A stretch of DNA of 5,039 nt from a virus (Duplodnaviria; Heunggongvirae; Uroviricota; Caudoviricetes), in the IMG/VR virus record IMGVR_UViG_2724679238_000013, one strand, 5' to 3'. Below are positions 1-5,039 of this stretch, in pieces. Positions within the stretch are counted from its first letter, which is position 1. Every line of letters begins with the position of its first letter. The notes under the pieces were generated by a model. That model was not told the DNA's origin. It ran no database searches and worked only from the letters and a program-made list of their open reading frames with translations. Made by a program: the position numbers and the translations under genes.

Positions 1-516
1 CAGTTTGATGGCATGGACTTTGAGCAGGACAATGAATCCTGTACATGCCGGATTTACCGCAAAGACCGTAATCATCCGATCTGCGTTACCGAATGGATGG
101 ATGAATGCCGCCGCGAACCATTCAAAACCCGCGAAGGCAGAGAAATCACCGGACCGTGGCAGTCGCATCCCAAACGGATGTTACGGCATAAAGCCATGAT
201 TCAGTGTGCCCGTCTGGCCTTCGGATTTGCTGGTATCTATGACAAGGATGAAGCCGAGCGCATTGTCGAAAATACCGCATACACTGCAGAACGTCAGCCG
301 GAACGCGACATCACTCCGGTTAACGATGAAACCATGCAGGAGATTAACACTCTGCTGATTGCCCTGGACAAAACATGGGATGACGACTTATTGCCGCTCT
401 GTTCCCAGATATTTCGCCGCGACATTCGCGCATCGTCAGAACTGACACAGGCCGAAGCAGTGAAAGCTCTTGGATTCCTGAAACAGAAAGCCTCTGAACA
501 GAAGGTGGCTGCATGA
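1..516 (+). CDS. bet: Bet (Red-beta) single-strand annealing recombinase, C-terminal ~171 codons; the 5' end lies upstream of the window
   Basis: The frame is open from base 1 to TGA at 514-516. The translation (...[108 protein letters not shown]) matches the lambda Bet C-terminus as I recall it. Its stop overlaps the exo start (ATGA at 513-516), as in lambda. The ATG at 13 in the ORF track is internal, not the true start. Confidence 0.9.
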
Positions 517-1193
517 CACCGGGCATTATCCTGCAGCGTACCGGGATCGACGTGAGAGCTGTCGAACAGGGGGATGATGCGTGGCACAAATTACGGCTCG
601 GCGTCATTACAGCTTCAGAAGTTCACAACGTGATAGCAAAACCCCGATCCGGAAAGAAATGGCCTGACATGAAAATGTCCTACTTCCACACCCTGCTTGC
701 TGAGGTTTGCACCGGTGTGGCTCCGGAAGTTAATGCTAAGGCGCTGGCCTGGGGAAAACAGTACGAGAACGACGCCAGAACCCTGTTTGAATTCACTTCC
801 GGCGTGAATGTTACTGAATCCCCGATCATCTATCGCGACGAAAGTATGCGCACCGCCTGCTCTCCCGATGGTTTATGCAGTGACGGCAATGGCCTTGAGC
901 TGAAATGCCCGTTTACCTCCCGGGATTTCATGAAGTTCCGGCTCGGTGGTTTCGAGGCCATAAAGTCGGCTTACATGGCCCAGGTGCAGTACAGCATGTG
1001 GGTGACGCGAAAAGATGCCTGGTACTTTGCCAACTATGACCCGCGAATGAAGCGTGAAGGCCTGCATTATGTCGTGGTTGAGCGGGATGAAAAGTACATA
1101 GCGAGTTTTGACGAGATGGTGCCGGAGTTCATCGAAAAAATGGACGAGGCACTGGCTGAAATTGGTTTTGTATTTGGGGAGCAATGGCGATGA
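513..1193 (+). CDS. exo: Lambda exonuclease (Red-alpha, 5'-3' dsDNA exonuclease), 226 aa
   Basis: The 226-aa translation ([37 protein letters not shown]...[11 protein letters not shown]) is recognised as near-identical to lambda Exo, and the length equals lambda Exo. The start is coupled to the bet stop by an ATGA overlap. Confidence 0.95.
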
Positions 1194-1372
1194 AGCATCC
1201 TCACGATAATATCCGGGTAGGCGCGATAACTTTCGTCTACTCCGTTACAAAGCGAGGCTGGGTATTTCCCGGCCTTTCTGTTATCCGAAATCCACTGAAA
1301 GCATAGCGGCTGGCTGAAGAGATAAATAATAAACGAGGGACTGTATGCACAAAGCATCTCCTGTTGAATTAA
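1190..1372 (+). pseudogene. orf60a-like small ORF coupled to the exo stop, interrupted by an in-frame amber codon (TAG at 1304-1306); 38 codons before the stop and 21 after
   Basis: ATG at 1190 overlaps the exo stop (ATGA), the arrangement I recall for lambda orf60a. The frame reads [38 protein letters not shown], then TAG, then RLAEEINNKRGTVCTKHLLLN before TAA at 1370-1372. Total span is 60 codons and the 3' end overlaps the next ORF by 28 nt, matching the lambda orf60a/orf63 geometry as I remember it. Not in the ORF track because each piece is short. Confidence 0.4.
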
Positions 1373-1536
1373 GAACGAGTATCGGGATGGCACATAGCCT
1401 CGCTCAAATTGGAGTCAGGTTTGTGCCAATACCAGTAGAAACAGACGAAGAATTTCATACGTTAGCCACATCCCTTTCACAAAAGCTGGAAATGATGGCG
1501 GCGAAAGCAGAAGCAAACGAGAGAGACCCGGCATGA
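1345..1536 (+). CDS. Hypothetical small phage protein, 63 aa (lambda Orf63-like by size and position)
   Basis: ATG-to-stop ORF of 63 aa with GAGGGA four nt upstream of the ATG. Same strand and operon as exo. Length and overlap with the orf60a-like frame fit lambda orf63. Function unknown. Confidence 0.5.
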   Translation: MHKASPVELRTSIGMAHSLAQIGVRFVPIPVETDEEFHTLATSLSQKLEMMAAKAEANERDPA

Positions 1537-1616
1537 CAACAACAGAATGCATTTTTCTGGCAGCAGGCTTCATATTCTGTGTGCTTATGCTTGCCGACAT
1601 GGGACTTGTTCAATGA
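1533..1616 (+). CDS. Candidate 27-aa hydrophobic single-TM micro-protein (MTTTECIFLAAGFIFCVLMLADMGLVQ)
   Basis: The ATG at 1533 overlaps the stop of the upstream ORF (ATGA, 1533-1536) and its own stop overlaps the next ATG (ATGA, 1613-1616). A purine-rich GAGAGAG lies about 8 nt upstream. The peptide has a roughly 20-residue hydrophobic core. Below the size cutoff of the ORF track. The alternative is that this DNA is the N-terminal extension of the 1547 frame. Confidence 0.3.
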   Translation: MTTTECIFLAAGFIFCVLMLADMGLVQ

Positions 1617-1828
1617 CACCTCAGCAGGAAAACGCCCTTCGCAGCATTGCCCGTCAGGCTAATTCTGAAATCAAAAAAGCCAGACAGCAGTTTCCGGATA
1701 AAAACGTCGATGACATTTGCCGTAGCGTACTGAAGAAGCACCGCGAAACGGTAACGCTGATGGGATTCACACCGACTCATTTAAGTCTGGCGATCGGCAT
1801 GTTAAACGGCGTCTTTAAGGAGCGATGA
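1613..1828 (+). CDS. Hypothetical phage protein, 71 aa (MTPQQENALRSIARQANSEIKK...); alternative start at 1547 would give 93 aa
   Basis: Open frame ending at TGA 1826-1828. The ATG at 1613 is coupled by ATGA to the preceding small ORF. The 1547 ATG has no Shine-Dalgarno sequence and would add a Cys/His/Arg-rich extension that looks non-coding. Confidence 0.5.
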   Translation: MTPQQENALRSIARQANSEIKKARQQFPDKNVDDICRSVLKKHRETVTLMGFTPTHLSLAIGMLNGVFKER

Positions 1829-1830
1829 AC

Positions 1831-1920
1831 ATGAAAAGCAAAATCATCAGGGAGCTACAGGCTCCTTTTTTATTGTTCGCATTCACCCTCAAGCGTATTA
1901 ACCAACAATTCAGGGATTAA
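1831..1920 (+). CDS. Candidate 29-aa ORF (MKSKIIRELQAPFLLFAFTLKRINQQFRD); uncertain because it contains a terminator-like hairpin
   Basis: AAGGAG at 1817-1822 sits 8 nt upstream of the ATG at 1831, an ideal spacing. The ORF ends at TAA 1918-1920, just before the next gene. It overlaps the hairpin plus T-run at 1851-1871, so either the ORF or the terminator (or both, under antitermination) may be real. Confidence 0.25.
   Translation: MKSKIIRELQAPFLLFAFTLKRINQQFRD
1851..1871 (+). terminator. Intrinsic terminator-like hairpin: GGAGC-tacag-GCTCC followed by TTTTTT
   Basis: A 5-bp GC-rich stem (1851-1855 pairing with 1861-1865) with a 5-nt loop, immediately followed by a T6 run (1866-1871) on the + strand. 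It lies just after the stop of the 1613-1828 gene. No T-run follows the hairpin on the - strand. The stem is short, so efficiency is uncertain; the position is consistent with a tL-type terminator read through under N antitermination. Confidence 0.4.
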
Positions 1921-1926
1921 TGGAAG

Positions 1927-2148
1927 ATGGCAGACATCATTGATTCAGCATCAGAAATTGAAGAATTACAGCGCAACACAGCAATAAAAATGCACCGCCT
2001 GAACCACCAGGCTATATCTGCCACTCATTGTTGTGAGTGTGGCGATCCGATAGATGAACTAAGACGTCTGGCCGTTCAGGGTTGTCGGACTTGTGCAAGT
2101 TGCCAGGAGGATCTGGAGCTTATCAGTAAACAGAGAGGTTCGAAGTGA
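1927..2148 (+). CDS. TraR/DksA-family C4 zinc-finger protein, 73 aa (lambda Orf73-like)
   Basis: The translation contains CxxC-(17 residues)-CxxC (CECGDPIDELRRLAVQGCRTCASCQ), and its length and motif spacing match F-plasmid TraR and phage Orf73-type proteins as I recall them. Same strand and operon context. Confidence 0.75.
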   Translation: MADIIDSASEIEELQRNTAIKMHRLNHQAISATHCCECGDPIDELRRLAVQGCRTCASCQEDLELISKQRGSK

Positions 2149-2750
2149 GCGAAATTAACTCTCAGGCACTGCGTGAAGCGGCAGAGCAGGCAATGCATGA
2201 CGACTGGGGATTTGATGCGGACCTTTTCCATGAGCTGGTAACACCATCGATTGTGCTGGCACTGCTGGATGAACGGGAAAGAAACCAGCAATACATCAAA
2301 CGCCGCGACCAGGAGAACGAGGAAATTGCGCTAACGGTAGGGAAGCTGCGTGTTGAGCTTGAGGAAGCAAAATCAAAACTCAACGAGCAGCGTGAGTATT
2401 ACGAAGGTGTTATCTCGGATGGGAGTAAACGTATTGCTGAACTGGAGAAAAGCGAAGAGCAACTCATTAACGAGCGTGACCATGCTGAGTCTGCTTTAGC
2501 TGATATGTACTTCGCAACAACCGGGGATAGGCCTGAGTGGAGTAACTGTTTCAGTTTTTCAGATGCTGTCGATGCCGTAGTTGACAGAATTGCTGATTTA
2601 GAAGCCAAACAGCCATCGCCAGTAGTACCGGAAGAAAAACCAATGCCTAACCCTCTTAGCATGTACACAGTTGATGCTGTTGCAGCTATTGCAGAGGTGA
2701 GAGGCTGGAACGCCTGCCGTGCAGCCATGCTTAAGGGAGATAAATCATGA
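2145..2750 (+). CDS. Ea22-like protein, 201 aa, coiled-coil-rich N-terminal half; start is GTG
   Basis: GTG at 2145 overlaps the upstream stop (GTGA) and has GAGAGG 6 nt upstream. The position just after the TraR-like gene corresponds to lambda ea22 by synteny. The central region is charged and heptad-like (ENEEIALTVGKLRVELEEAKSKLNEQREYYEG). The call rests on synteny and remembered lambda coordinates only. Confidence 0.5.
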   Translation: MSEINSQALREAAEQAMHDDWGFDADLFHELVTPSIVLALLDERERNQQYIKRRDQENEEIALTVGKLRVELEEAKSKLNEQREYYEGVISDGSKRIAELEKSEEQLINERDHAESALADMYFATTGDRPEWSNCFSFSDAVDAVVDRIADLEAKQPSPVVPEEKPMPNPLSMYTVDAVAAIAEVRGWNACRAAMLKGDKS

Positions 2751-3097
2751 TTAATCGAACCAAACTGGAGCACATCCTCGAGTATGCCAGGCAGCAGAGG
2801 CGCTTTGGCCAGCTTTGTAAAATTCTGCCAGGAGATATGGTTGAAATCGTGGAGATTGCCATGCGTAAGACTGGCAACTCTCCGGTAAGTCCGGGTGGTT
2901 GGATAAGCTGTAGTGAGCGAATGCCCGCTCAAGATGATTGGATTTTAATTTATTCAAAGCACGGTGAGTATATGGCAGGACAGGTACAAGAGGAATACGT
3001 GGAGTTGAGCGACGGCACTTTATCGTGGTTAGGGAACGCCTTGTACTGGATGCTGCTACCAGAACCGCCGCAGGGAGTGAATGATGAATTGGCCTGA
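2747..3097 (+). CDS. Hypothetical phage protein, 116 aa, with a DUF551-like motif (GGWISCSERMPAQDDWILIY)
   Basis: ATG at 2747 overlaps the upstream stop (ATGA), with AGGGAG 7 nt upstream. The W-I-S-x-x-E-R-M-P motif followed by a hydrophobic strand resembles DUF551 prophage proteins, from memory. Confidence 0.5.
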   Translation: MINRTKLEHILEYARQQRRFGQLCKILPGDMVEIVEIAMRKTGNSPVSPGGWISCSERMPAQDDWILIYSKHGEYMAGQVQEEYVELSDGTLSWLGNALYWMLLPEPPQGVNDELA

Positions 3098-3167
3098 AGC
3101 ATTCACCGCTGTAGGAGTTGCAATCGCGGTGGCATTTATTCTGTATTCGCTTTTCCGCTGGGGATAA
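3084..3167 (+). CDS. Candidate 27-aa single-TM micro-protein (MNWPEAFTAVGVAIAVAFILYSLFRWG)
   Basis: ATG at 3084 with AGGGAG (3072-3077) 6 nt upstream. It overlaps the last 14 nt of the upstream gene and ends 4 nt before the next gene's ATG. The peptide has a short polar N-terminus, a roughly 19-residue hydrophobic helix and an aromatic/basic C-terminus (FRWG). Below the ORF-track cutoff. Confidence 0.3.
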   Translation: MNWPEAFTAVGVAIAVAFILYSLFRWG

Positions 3168-3171
3168 AGGA

Positions 3172-3414
3172 ATGTTCGCTCTGATTCAACGTGGTCAGAT
3201 ATACACCGATAGCGCCGGCTACCCGATAAAAATTCTTCGCTGCATAAACAACACTGTGTTGTACAGAAGAATGGATGGGCGAACACAGTCGGTAAAAATA
3301 AACGATTTTAATGAACTGTTTGAACGGATCGATCACCAGGAATACCGACAAATTCTGGCTGAAACAGAGCAGGAGAACCATCTGAAAAAATTACGCGCCA
3401 TGCAAAGGAGATAA
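3172..3414 (+). CDS. Hypothetical phage protein, 80 aa (MFALIQRGQIYTDSAGYPIKILRC...)
   Basis: Open frame to TAA 3412-3414. The ATG at 3172 is preceded by GGGGATAAAGGA. The longer track ORF from 3118 would need a TTG start with no usable Shine-Dalgarno spacing and would overlap the candidate micro-ORF. Confidence 0.5.
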   Translation: MFALIQRGQIYTDSAGYPIKILRCINNTVLYRRMDGRTQSVKINDFNELFERIDHQEYRQILAETEQENHLKKLRAMQRR

Positions 3415-3532
3415 ACCGGTAAAGGTGTTCGCGATAAAGGTGAATATCGGCAATGAATAACAATCCTCGCACTCGCGGGGATTTCTTTTATCTGAACTCG
3501 CTACGGCGGGTTTTGTTTTATGGAGACAAGAA

Positions 3533-3877
3533 ATGTCAGATTTGGCTATGAAGGTTTTGAAATGGCAATCGACTGGCGATGTTGGCATCAGTAGCGCAAC
3601 TCTTGCCTCAATCGCATGTGGACTGAAAAAGAATATCTATGGTCATCACTTCGGCGCTCCACATGACGCAGCAGACTTCCGGCGATGCGTTGCACTTGTT
3701 GAGCAGATTCCAGAAATCAGAGATTCATTCGACAAGGTTGCAAAGCGCGTTCCGGCATTCAAAGGCATCCTCAACGAATGGGATTCCCTCGTCGCTCTGT
3801 TGAAGTCTGAAATGAAGATACACGGAAACAAAGCACCAGAGACTTACAGAAGAATTAGCGAGCTACGCAAGGACTAA
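3533..3877 (+). CDS. Hypothetical phage accessory protein, 114 aa
   Basis: ATG at 3533 with GGAGA 6 nt upstream. It is preceded by a 118-bp non-coding spacer and followed by a terminator-like hairpin, so it may be a separately regulated moron-like gene. I recognise no motif in it. Confidence 0.6.
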   Translation: MSDLAMKVLKWQSTGDVGISSATLASIACGLKKNIYGHHFGAPHDAADFRRCVALVEQIPEIRDSFDKVAKRVPAFKGILNEWDSLVALLKSEMKIHGNKAPETYRRISELRKD

Positions 3878-3935
3878 CCACAGCCTCACACTCAATGAGG
3901 CCTGTTCATTTCTCAAGATATCCAGACCTACCATT

Positions 3936-3958
3936 GCCGCATCAATGCGGCTTTTCTT
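3936..3958 (+). terminator. Intrinsic terminator-like hairpin (GCCGCA-tcaa-TGCGGC) followed by TTTTCTT
   Basis: A 6-bp stem (3936-3941 pairing with 3946-3951) with a 4-nt loop, then a T-rich tract (3952-3958). It lies between the stop of the 114-aa gene and xis, on the + strand. Confidence 0.4.
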
Positions 3959-3995
3959 GCGTGTAATTGCGGAGACTTTGCGATGTACTTGACAC
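3957..3995 (+). promoter_or_regulatory. pI-like CII-activated int promoter region: TTGC-N6-TTGC direct repeat just upstream of and overlapping the xis start
   Basis: TTGC at 3957-3960 and TTGC at 3967-3970 are separated by 6 nt (TTGCgtgtaaTTGC), the lambda CII recognition pattern. The surrounding sequence matches the lambda pI/xis start region as I recall it. Confidence 0.45.
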
Positions 3996-4207
3996 TTCAG
4001 GAGTGGAACGCACGCCAGCGACGCCCAAGAAGCCTTGAAACAGTTCGTCGATGGGTACGCGAGTGCAGGATATTCCCTCCTCCGGTTAAGGATGGAAGAG
4101 AGTATCTGTTCCACGAATCAGCGGTAAAGGTTGACTTAAATCGACCAGTAACAGGTAGCCTTTTGAAGAGGATCAGAAATGACAATCACTCTTCATGCGT
4201 GGCTTGA
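3983..4207 (+). CDS. xis: Excisionase Xis, 74 aa, with a C-terminal tail that differs from lambda Xis
   Basis: The translation (MYLTLQEWNARQRRPRSLETVRRWVRECRIFPPPVKDGREYLFHESAVKVDLNRPVTG.LLKRIRN...) is recognised as lambda Xis over about 65 residues. GGAGAC lies 6 nt upstream. The 3' end overlaps the int start by 29 nt. The last residues (DNHSSCVA) differ from lambda (GKKAKS). Confidence 0.9.
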   Translation: MYLTLQEWNARQRRPRSLETVRRWVRECRIFPPPVKDGREYLFHESAVKVDLNRPVTGSLLKRIRNDNHSSCVA

Positions 4208-5039
4208 CCGATATGAAACAATCCTCAGCGAGAGGGGTATCAGGCCGAAAACTCTACTCGACTACGCCAGCAAAATCAGGGCAATCCGAAGAAAATTGCC
4301 GGACAAACCGCTCGCAGACATATCAACGAAAGAGGTGGCAGCAATGCTAAACACCTACGTAGCAGAAGGTAAAGCGGCTTCCGCAAAATTAATCAGGTCA
4401 ACCCTTGTTGACGTTTTTCGTGAGGCAATAGCCGAGGGGCATGTGGCTACGAATCCGGTAACAGCAACCCGCACAGCAAAGTCAGAAGTAAGGCGCTCAA
4501 GGCTGACAGCTAATGAGTATGTCGCAATTCACCATGCAGCCGAACCTCTCCCAATCTGGCTGAGGCTTGCGATGGATTTGGCCGTCGTTACAGGTCAGAG
4601 AGTCGGCGATTTGTGCAAAATGAAATGGTCAGACATAAACGACAACCATCTTCACATTGAACAGGGTAAAACAGGGGCTAAGCTCGCCATTCCGCTGACG
4701 CTAACGATTGACGCGCTCAATATTTCATTGGCTGATACACTACAGAAATGCAGGGAGGCCAGCGGCAGTGAAACAATAATTGCATCAACGCATCACGAAC
4801 CGCTTTCCCCGAAAACAGTATCTAAGTATTTTACAAAGGCGAGAAATGCATCTGGACTCTCATTTGATGGAGACCCGCCAACATTCCATGAACTGCGTAG
4901 CCTGTCGGCGAGGCTATACCGGAATCAGATTGGCGATAAGTTTGCTCAACGTCTTCTCGGGCATAAATCAGATTCAATGGCGGCGCGGTATAGGGACAGC
5001 CGAGGGAGAGAATGGGACAAAATTGAAATCAACAAATGA
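4179..5039 (+). CDS. int: Lambda-family tyrosine integrase, 286 aa, lacking the N-terminal arm-binding domain
   Basis: The translation aligns to lambda Int from about residue 73 onward (TLHAWLDRYETIL... against lambda TLHSWLDRYEKIL...). Catalytic-motif contexts are present (TGQRVGDLC, HELRSLSARLY, LLGHKSDSMAARYRD). The ATG at 4179 sits at the lambda int start, with AAGAGGA 6 nt upstream, and an in-frame TGA lies 5 codons upstream (4164-4166), so no N-terminal extension is possible. The stop is at 5037-5039, the last bases of the window. Confidence 0.9.
   Translation: MTITLHAWLDRYETILSERGIRPKTLLDYASKIRAIRRKLPDKPLADISTKEVAAMLNTYVAEGKAASAKLIRSTLVDVFREAIAEGHVATNPVTATRTAKSEVRRSRLTANEYVAIHHAAEPLPIWLRLAMDLAVVTGQRVGDLCKMKWSDINDNHLHIEQGKTGAKLAIPLTLTIDALNISLADTLQKCREASGSETIIASTHHEPLSPKTVSKYFTKARNASGLSFDGDPPTFHELRSLSARLYRNQIGDKFAQRLLGHKSDSMAARYRDSRGREWDKIEINK

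Follow-up and report, generated by a model that had tools for sequence, protein, structure and literature searches.

The stretch analysed here (the window, 5,039 nucleotides of IMG/VR virus record IMGVR_UViG_2724679238_000013, Caudoviricetes) carries, on its + strand, bet (partial), exo, orf60a, orf63, an orf61-like gene, orf73, an Ea22-like gene, four open reading frames (ORFs) at 2747-3877, xis and int. These four ORFs, which encode a DUF551 protein, a hydrophobic peptide, a DUF4222 protein and a protein called ORF114 as in phage 434, are the subject of this work. An earlier interpretation of the same DNA, made from the letters alone (the sequence-only reading), had described them as one accessory cassette between the Ea22-like gene and xis with no recognised lambda counterpart. 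The four ORFs, the 118-bp spacer preceding the last of them, its Shine-Dalgarno sequence (GGAG at 3522-3525, 7 nt upstream of the ATG) and the hairpin behind it were all found where that reading had placed them. The observation is confirmed and, as described below, its interpretation is supported in part. The features of the region are the following.

2145-2750, + strand: Ea22-like gene (Pfam Ead_Ea22, E 3.7e-29)
2747-3097, + strand: gene for the 116-aa DUF551 protein (Pfam PF04448)
3081-3167, + strand: micro-ORF for a 28-aa hydrophobic peptide, MMNWPEAFTAVGVAIAVAFILYSLFRWG
3172-3414, + strand: gene for the 80-aa DUF4222 protein (Pfam PF13973)
3407-3460, + strand: remnant of an HK022 gp34-type gene, its last ~18 codons
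3415-3532: spacer upstream of ORF114, exactly 118 bp
3458-3520, + strand: tL4 terminator module, two tandem G+C-rich hairpins
3533-3877, + strand: ORF114, 114 aa (434 ORF114, HK022 gp32, PHROG 1229)
3883-3901, + strand: hairpin directly 3' of the ORF114 stop, with a weak T-tract (terminator-like scan, RNA fold)
3936-3959, + strand: t'I terminator upstream of xis
3983-4207, + strand: xis, downstream edge of the variable region (Pfam Exc, E 1.5e-38)

Every family-supported substantial ORF of the window lies on the + strand; the minus-strand ORFs of the region gave no convincing family match, and an Rfam scan of the whole window gave no hit to an RNA family. Upstream of the segment, orf60a belongs to DUF1317 and orf63 to DUF1382, and orf73 encodes a TraR/DksA zinc finger. 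The stop of the Ea22-like gene and the start of the DUF551 gene overlap in an ATGA at 2747-2750, the micro-ORF starts inside the end of the DUF551 gene, and its stop lies 4 nt 5' of the DUF4222 ATG. Because of these overlapping or nearly abutting stops and starts, the DUF551 gene, the micro-ORF and the DUF4222 gene appear to form a translationally coupled chain. That the four ORFs are real genes and not chance frames is supported by protein family matches and by coding-type substitution patterns. Being placed between exo and xis, 3' of orf60a-orf63-orf61-orf73-ea22 and on the pL-transcribed strand, the segment belongs to the variable part of the exo-xis region, a locus type already published as such, in which a conserved block is followed by a variable gene set (PMC8614690). 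Position, strand and pL operon are the same as in the exo-xis tails of lambda and the Shiga toxin (Stx) phages (lambda ea8.5 and orf55; Phi24B gp05; PMC8614690, PMC10834534), and all these tails are alike in holding small accessory ORFs that vary in number and kind. The tL4 sequence is common to lambda and the window, whereas the gene set of the latter is DUF551, transmembrane peptide, DUF4222 and ORF114 instead of ea8.5 and orf55.

Comparison with lambda gave 96.8% identity over window positions 1-2446, where homology stops inside the Ea22-like gene, and, apart from the short stretch at 3457-3535 described below, the match resumes only at 3952 (xis), with 97% DNA identity. The sequence-only reading had set the departure from the lambda layout at about 2747. 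This stands for the proteins, as tblastn found no homologue of the DUF551 protein, DUF4222 or ORF114 in the lambda int-cIII region, but not for the DNA, whose homology is already lost at 2446. The Ea22-like protein is in fact chimeric, its N-terminus and coiled coil being of the lambda type (94% identity to lambda Ea22 over residues 1-104) and its C-terminus non-lambda. Positions 2618-2925 are 96% identical to the 3' end of HK022 gp36 plus the 5' end of gp35, a junction that covers the last ~44 codons of the Ea22-like gene and the first ~60 of the DUF551 gene. Conversely, although the proteins are non-lambda, the spacer 5' of ORF114 is lambda-like, since 3457-3535 is 95% identical to lambda 29361-29283, between ea8.5 and orf55. 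Judged from these alignments, the mosaicism extends to the sub-genic level.

The same position is occupied by different gene combinations in related phages and prophages, as expected for the mosaic hotspot that had been proposed:

Phage YYZ-2008: DUF551, the same micro-ORF, DUF4222, a 44-aa ORF and xis, without ORF114
Stx2a_WGPS8 and relatives: DUF551, a different 29-aa hydrophobic ORF, tL4, ORF114 and an AlpA-type regulator, without DUF4222
HK022: gp36, gp35 (DUF551), gp34, tL4, orf55 and ORF114
SPN9CC (P22-like): eaA (DUF551), an ORF114 homologue and int
Escherichia coli prophages: MazZ-like, ASCH-annotated or DUF4752 genes, with TorI replacing Xis

Phage 434 likewise has tL4, orf55 and ORF114. 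In this comparison of loci DUF551, DUF4222 and ORF114 occur apart or recombined, so that the idea of one accessory cassette has to be abandoned: the segment is a set of modules that reassort independently between phages. E. coli E2865 and OkiPb01691 carry the whole segment at 100% identity; of 5426 complete genomes, 141 have at least 80% of it and 3162 have parts of it. In four E. coli database proteins (P0028, P0036, P0015 and P0017) part of ORF114 is joined, at near-100% identity, to Ea22, Kil, PF04447 or ERF segments; these joints are probably the products of deletions in degraded prophage pL operons.

The 116-aa protein begins with a helical N-module of 50 aa, which a GNSPVSPGG linker joins to a C-terminal DUF551 domain, the latter assigned by Pfam at 38.4 bits for a cutoff of 22 (E 2.3e-9; residues 51-109, profile positions 1-68). 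It matches both PHROG 924 and PHROG 24004, and the N-module is PHROG 24004. More than 90% identical copies of the C-domain are carried by proteins with unrelated N-terminal parts, including Ea22 coiled coils and PF04447 pyrophosphohydrolase modules, and the joint in these cases is a GNSPVTPDGW linker; the presence of a near-identical C-module on many N-modules suggests a shared docking function. This agrees with the description of DUF551 as a portable domain that is also present in YfdS of prophage CPS-53 (PMC10834534, PMC4776307). Like the protein of the window, P22 EaA, CPS-53 YfdS and the Ea22 variant V2 bear a portable C-terminal DUF551 and belong to an early 'ea' region, whereas the 50-aa helical N-module found here is unlike the N-terminal parts of EaA, YfdS or Ea22. 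This N-module showed 9 non-synonymous and 5 synonymous differences. As far as it is cited in PMC4776307, the sole recorded DUF551 phenotype is the H2O2 sensitivity of a yfdS mutant, an observation of little mechanistic content.

The predicted micro-ORF product is hydrophobic (grand average of hydropathy 1.14) and plausibly a single-pass membrane peptide, as predicted from its sequence. Compared with YYZ-2008 the gene differs by 3 synonymous and 0 non-synonymous changes, the peptide being identical. Neither Pfam nor PHROG yielded a family match, and the PGAP annotation lacks the micro-ORF. At about 1890-1980 of the Stx2a_WGPS8 locus (L011), a different hydrophobic ORF of 29 aa, MMPPVKVVIITLVMIVIARIMSGEIVWIW, follows DUF551 at the same junction. 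It can therefore be argued that selection acts on the type of product, since in the Stx2 phages a different hydrophobic peptide of similar length takes the same place.

The 80-aa protein is a member of DUF4222 (57.9 bits for a Pfam cutoff of 27, E 7.3e-16), and all of its 79 homologues were so named or bore the domain; in the literature, DUF4222 was found in passing mentions and annotation only. Its structural model (mean predicted local distance difference test, pLDDT, 85.9) shows a small five-stranded Tudor/SH3-like barrel and a 25-residue basic C-terminal helix with an invariant HLKKLRAM motif. The closest structures are the RNA-polymerase-binding domains of UvrD, PcrA and CarD, and the model has the five-stranded Tudor-like barrel that is characteristic of the UvrD/PcrA C-terminal domains and of the RNA-polymerase-binding domain of CarD. 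The C-terminal domains of UvrD and PcrA and CarD dock on the beta subunit of RNA polymerase. However, sequence identity to these domains is 4-8% and profile-level homology to them was not found, they are without the 25-residue basic helix, and such small barrels are common.

The sequence-only reading had regarded the 114-aa gene as separately spaced, with a spacer of its own. This view did not survive the comparison with HK022, in which window positions 3407-3526 are 96.7% identical to positions 3637-3756 of the HK022 locus (L002), spanning the end of gp34 (3690) and the annotated tL4, nor that with lambda, which also carries tL4. On sequence grounds the 118-bp spacer combines the stub of a gene with a conserved terminator module and is not a private regulatory region. 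RefSeq names the E. coli homologues of HK022 gp34 ASCH domain-containing or RNA-binding proteins; as a Pfam search of HK022 gp34 did not confirm ASCH, this name is a RefSeq annotation only. A terminator scan located the tL4 hairpins at 3462-3483 and 3494-3513, with a T-run behind each of them, and the spacer folds better than shuffled sequence (-37.8 kcal/mol, z -3.47). In 434 (M60848) and HK022 (X51962) the homologous feature bears the annotation tL4, on which the open-access literature yielded no paper. On the other side of ORF114, the scan found the t'I hairpin, GCCGCATCAATGCGGC, at 3936-3951, followed by TTTTCTT; its homologue in 434 M60848 (locus L001, 968-991) is annotated as t'-I. The three hairpins at 3462-3483, 3494-3513 and 3936-3951 thus have what defines an intrinsic terminator, namely a G+C-rich stem, a U-tract and a homologous position, and ORF114 stands alone between two terminators. 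A simple consensus scan detected no promoter-like site in 2600-4250, and a promoter of its own for ORF114 was rejected, none being detected and only ~40 nt lying between the tL4 hairpins and the ATG.

The proteins of the segment had been called uncharacterised. This is correct in that profile searches assigned the 116-aa protein to DUF551, the 80-aa one to DUF4222 and the 114-aa one to PHROG 1229, without a match to any characterised housekeeping phage protein, but the 114-aa gene was already known as 434 ORF114/HK022 gp32. ORF114 is 97.4% identical to 434 ORF114 over 114 aa and matches PHROG 1229 with E 7e-52 (positions 1-113 of 116). Both 434 ORF114 and HK022 gp32 (labelled 'N15 early protein homolog') are 97-98% identical to the protein of the window and have the same flanks, with the tL4 side upstream and t'I and xis downstream. 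They differ in that orf55 lies between tL4 and ORF114 in 434 and HK022 and is absent from the window, while lambda has orf55 and no ORF114. The synonymous/non-synonymous differences of ORF114 were 11/1 with Stx2a_WGPS8, 8/3 with 434 and 9/1 with the E. coli H5 prophage, and these counts, like those of the micro-ORF, indicate purifying selection. In the literature we found nothing on ORF114 beyond annotation (434 ORF114, protein accessions and the PHROG identifier). The depositor of Stx2a_F349 labelled the ORF114 homologue (L135, 884-1228; AP012530) a 'lipoprotein'. ORF114 as a lipoprotein was rejected, because C29 is found in 10 of 89 members and the invariant cysteine is C52; moreover, residues 19-28 are modelled as a helix in a compact globular domain with pLDDT >90, and the label looks like a false lipobox call.

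The AlphaFold2 model of ORF114 has seven helices (mean pLDDT 93.7). Fold comparison found no solved structural relative, profile searches of PDB sequences and Pfam gave no match, and Pfam searches with 45 diverse members returned only noise. The family is nonetheless very large, since a hidden Markov model search of 1.84 billion representatives recovered 2846 clusters (defined at 50% identity) at E<=1e-3 and 655 at E<=1e-10, and tblastn detected homologues in 277 phage records, including phages of Vibrio, Klebsiella, Mannheimia and Arthrobacter. Residues W11, G18, S20, S21, P43, D45, D48, R51, C52 and W83 show little or no variation among 89 diverse members; in the model several of them are helix caps or core aromatics, so that part of the constraint may be structural. 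For the analysis of neighbours, loci were collected with a degenerate DNA motif for PxDPxDFxRCxxL, which returned a true homologue in 117 of 120 loci. No conserved partner gene was found in 85 dereplicated viral loci, and the recurrent neighbours belong to early DNA metabolism (YqaJ exonuclease, SSB, RdgC, a YfbR-like HD protein, DUF5131 and DUF1643). A tie of ORF114 to integration or excision was rejected: an integrase-like ORF was present in 7 of the 85 loci and adjacent in none, so that the position beside xis in lambdoid phages is a local habit rather than a functional link. Homologues also adjoin exonuclease genes and are found 3' of an integrase. Other architectures include tandem duplications and zinc-ribbon extensions. 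A metagenomic protein of 558 aa (P0176) carries the ORF114 domain at residues 451-537, fused C-terminally to a CCA-adding enzyme that has an HD domain; no other informative domain fusion was seen among the 150 matches listed.

The prophage itself shows several lesions. Compared with HK022 and E. coli prophage int, the int gene (4179-5039) lacks 213 bp in frame: the ATG is kept, codons 2-72 (the arm-binding domain) are lost, and the C-terminus of Xis (4186-4207, overlapping int) is altered from GKKAKS to DNHSSCVA. This deletion was not shared by any complete E. coli genome among the matches listed, and to judge by the sequence the prophage is probably unable to integrate or excise normally. A second sign of decay is found in orf60a (1190-1372), where a CAG to TAG change at 1304-1306 shortens the product from the 60 residues of lambda and E. 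coli prophage to 38. In the same part of the window, a 27-aa hydrophobic ORF at 1533-1616, MTTTECIFLAAGFIFCVLMLADMGLVQ, overlaps the orf63 stop and enters the orf61-like gene in another frame; it had no family match in Pfam or PHROG and may be among the short peptides that PMC8614690 cites from ribosome profiling of lambda. The orf61-like frame itself (1547-1828) encodes 93 aa, or 71 aa in PGAP, and lambda orf61 diverges from it after '...SEIKK' and ends at 61 aa, which suggests a frame difference between lambda and the lineage of this prophage.

We believe that the most plausible explanation for these results, to which we give a probability of about 0.6, is that 2747-3877 represents the variable distal part of the exo-xis operon, transcribed from pL, of an E. 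coli prophage of the lambda/HK022 type, and is made up of delayed-early accessory genes that would tune the host machinery. Its structure and evolution follow directly from the comparisons described above. The modules are the portable DUF551 C-domain on a short helical N-module, the coupled 28-aa putative membrane peptide, DUF4222, the HK022 gp34-like stub fused to the tL4 twin terminator and, finally, ORF114 followed by t'I and xis. As to expression, we infer that the genes would require N-modified RNA polymerase coming from pL to pass tL4; if expression depends on such antiterminated readthrough, they would be delayed-early upon infection or induction and silent in a repressed lysogen. The products would be dispensable, and would bind host machinery and tune the host and the outcome of the lysis-lysogeny choice. 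This part of the proposal relies on analogy with operon neighbours for which binding of host machinery has been shown or proposed, that is, Orf73/TraR (which binds RNA polymerase), Ea22, Orf60a/61/63 and Orf55. Genes of the conserved exo-xis block are reported to alter the balance between lysis and lysogeny (PMC10834534, PMC10789677), the TraR homologue Orf73 reprograms transcription of the host directly (PMC9239242), and Orf55 has been modelled as an RNA polymerase inhibitor of the T7 Gp2 type (PMC8614690). Within this frame, and as a guess from its modelled fold, the Tudor-like barrel of DUF4222 could dock on the RNA polymerase beta subunit in the manner of the UvrD/PcrA C-terminal domains and CarD; it is likewise a guess that DUF551 could be a shared targeting domain that brings different N-modules to one common partner. 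ORF114 would be a conserved stand-alone early effector. We tentatively suggest, without holding it to be probable, that this family (W11, GxSS, PxDxxDxxRC and W83, in phages of Proteobacteria and Actinobacteria) is a novel type of effector directed at the host; its members would be small enzymes or would bind a component that is conserved in all hosts, possibly in counter-defence linked to tRNA or nucleic-acid repair.

Several points weigh against this proposal. Termination at tL4 and t'I is predicted from what the depositors of the 434 and HK022 records annotated, a consensus promoter scan would miss weak or activator-dependent promoters, and expression in this strain is uncertain because the prophage, with its int deletion and orf60a nonsense codon, looks defective. 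In addition, the position would suit an anti-defence role equally well, since the same early leftward operon carries Ral and Gam. It may thus be asked whether the genes are counter-defence factors against restriction, abortive infection or other immunity, comparable to Ral and Gam, with the rapid turnover of gene content at the locus reflecting an arms race. The fusion of DUF551 to PF04447 modules is in line with this, as that dATP/dGTP pyrophosphohydrolase class has been linked to inhibition of host restriction (PMC10834534), and so is the excess of non-synonymous changes in the DUF551 N-module; the fusion of the ORF114 domain to a CCA-adding enzyme with HD domain would fit tRNA repair against anticodon nucleases, but it is a single case among the matches listed. 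Yet no characterised anti-defence protein was matched by sequence or fold: the three proteins had no match in PADLOC, NCBIfam or PDB sequences, and ORF114 had no fold match. Moreover, ORF114 is strongly conserved and has residues that do not vary between phages of Proteobacteria and of Actinobacteria, unlike most narrow-range inhibitors, and ORF114 and DUF4222 are basic (isoelectric points 9.2 and 9.6), so that they are not DNA mimics. We regard a counter-defence role as the main rival explanation, but a doubtful one.

Expression from the lysogen is more improbable still. If the genes were morons conferring superinfection exclusion or anti-phage defence, for instance through a membrane peptide that blocks DNA entry, the conservation of a small hydrophobic peptide at the amino-acid level would be accounted for, ORF114 bracketed by terminators would resemble an insulated unit, and the truncated int of an apparently immobilised prophage would be compatible with domestication. 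Nevertheless, the promoter scan was negative in 2600-4250 and the genes are co-oriented with and downstream of pL, and hence would be repressed in a lysogen. There was no match to a PADLOC defence model either, and the homologues lie in the early regions of many phages, beside recombination or replication genes. It is hardly credible that the segment is simply decaying, non-functional prophage DNA in which ORFs have stayed intact by chance. The in-frame 213-bp int/xis deletion, the orf60a nonsense codon and the gene stub in the spacer are what such decay would leave, but none of the four ORFs is broken, synonymous changes prevail in ORF114 and in the micro-ORF, the 100% identical segment and copies covering at least 80% of it recur in the complete genomes mentioned above, and the same genes are found in the functional phages HK022, 434 and the Stx phages.

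The locus itself adds little, as it is one more combination in a known mosaic of dispensable early genes. Its value lies in pointing to three unstudied proteins that belong to the moment at which lambdoid and Shiga toxin phages decide between lysis and lysogeny. If it were true that DUF4222 binds RNA polymerase, it would be the third polymerase-directed factor of the exo-xis region, after Orf73/TraR and the proposed Orf55. ORF114, being widespread, strongly constrained and absent from Pfam and the PDB, is the better target of study, and because the family is so widespread and lacks an entry in either database, a single functional assignment for it would annotate thousands of phage genes.

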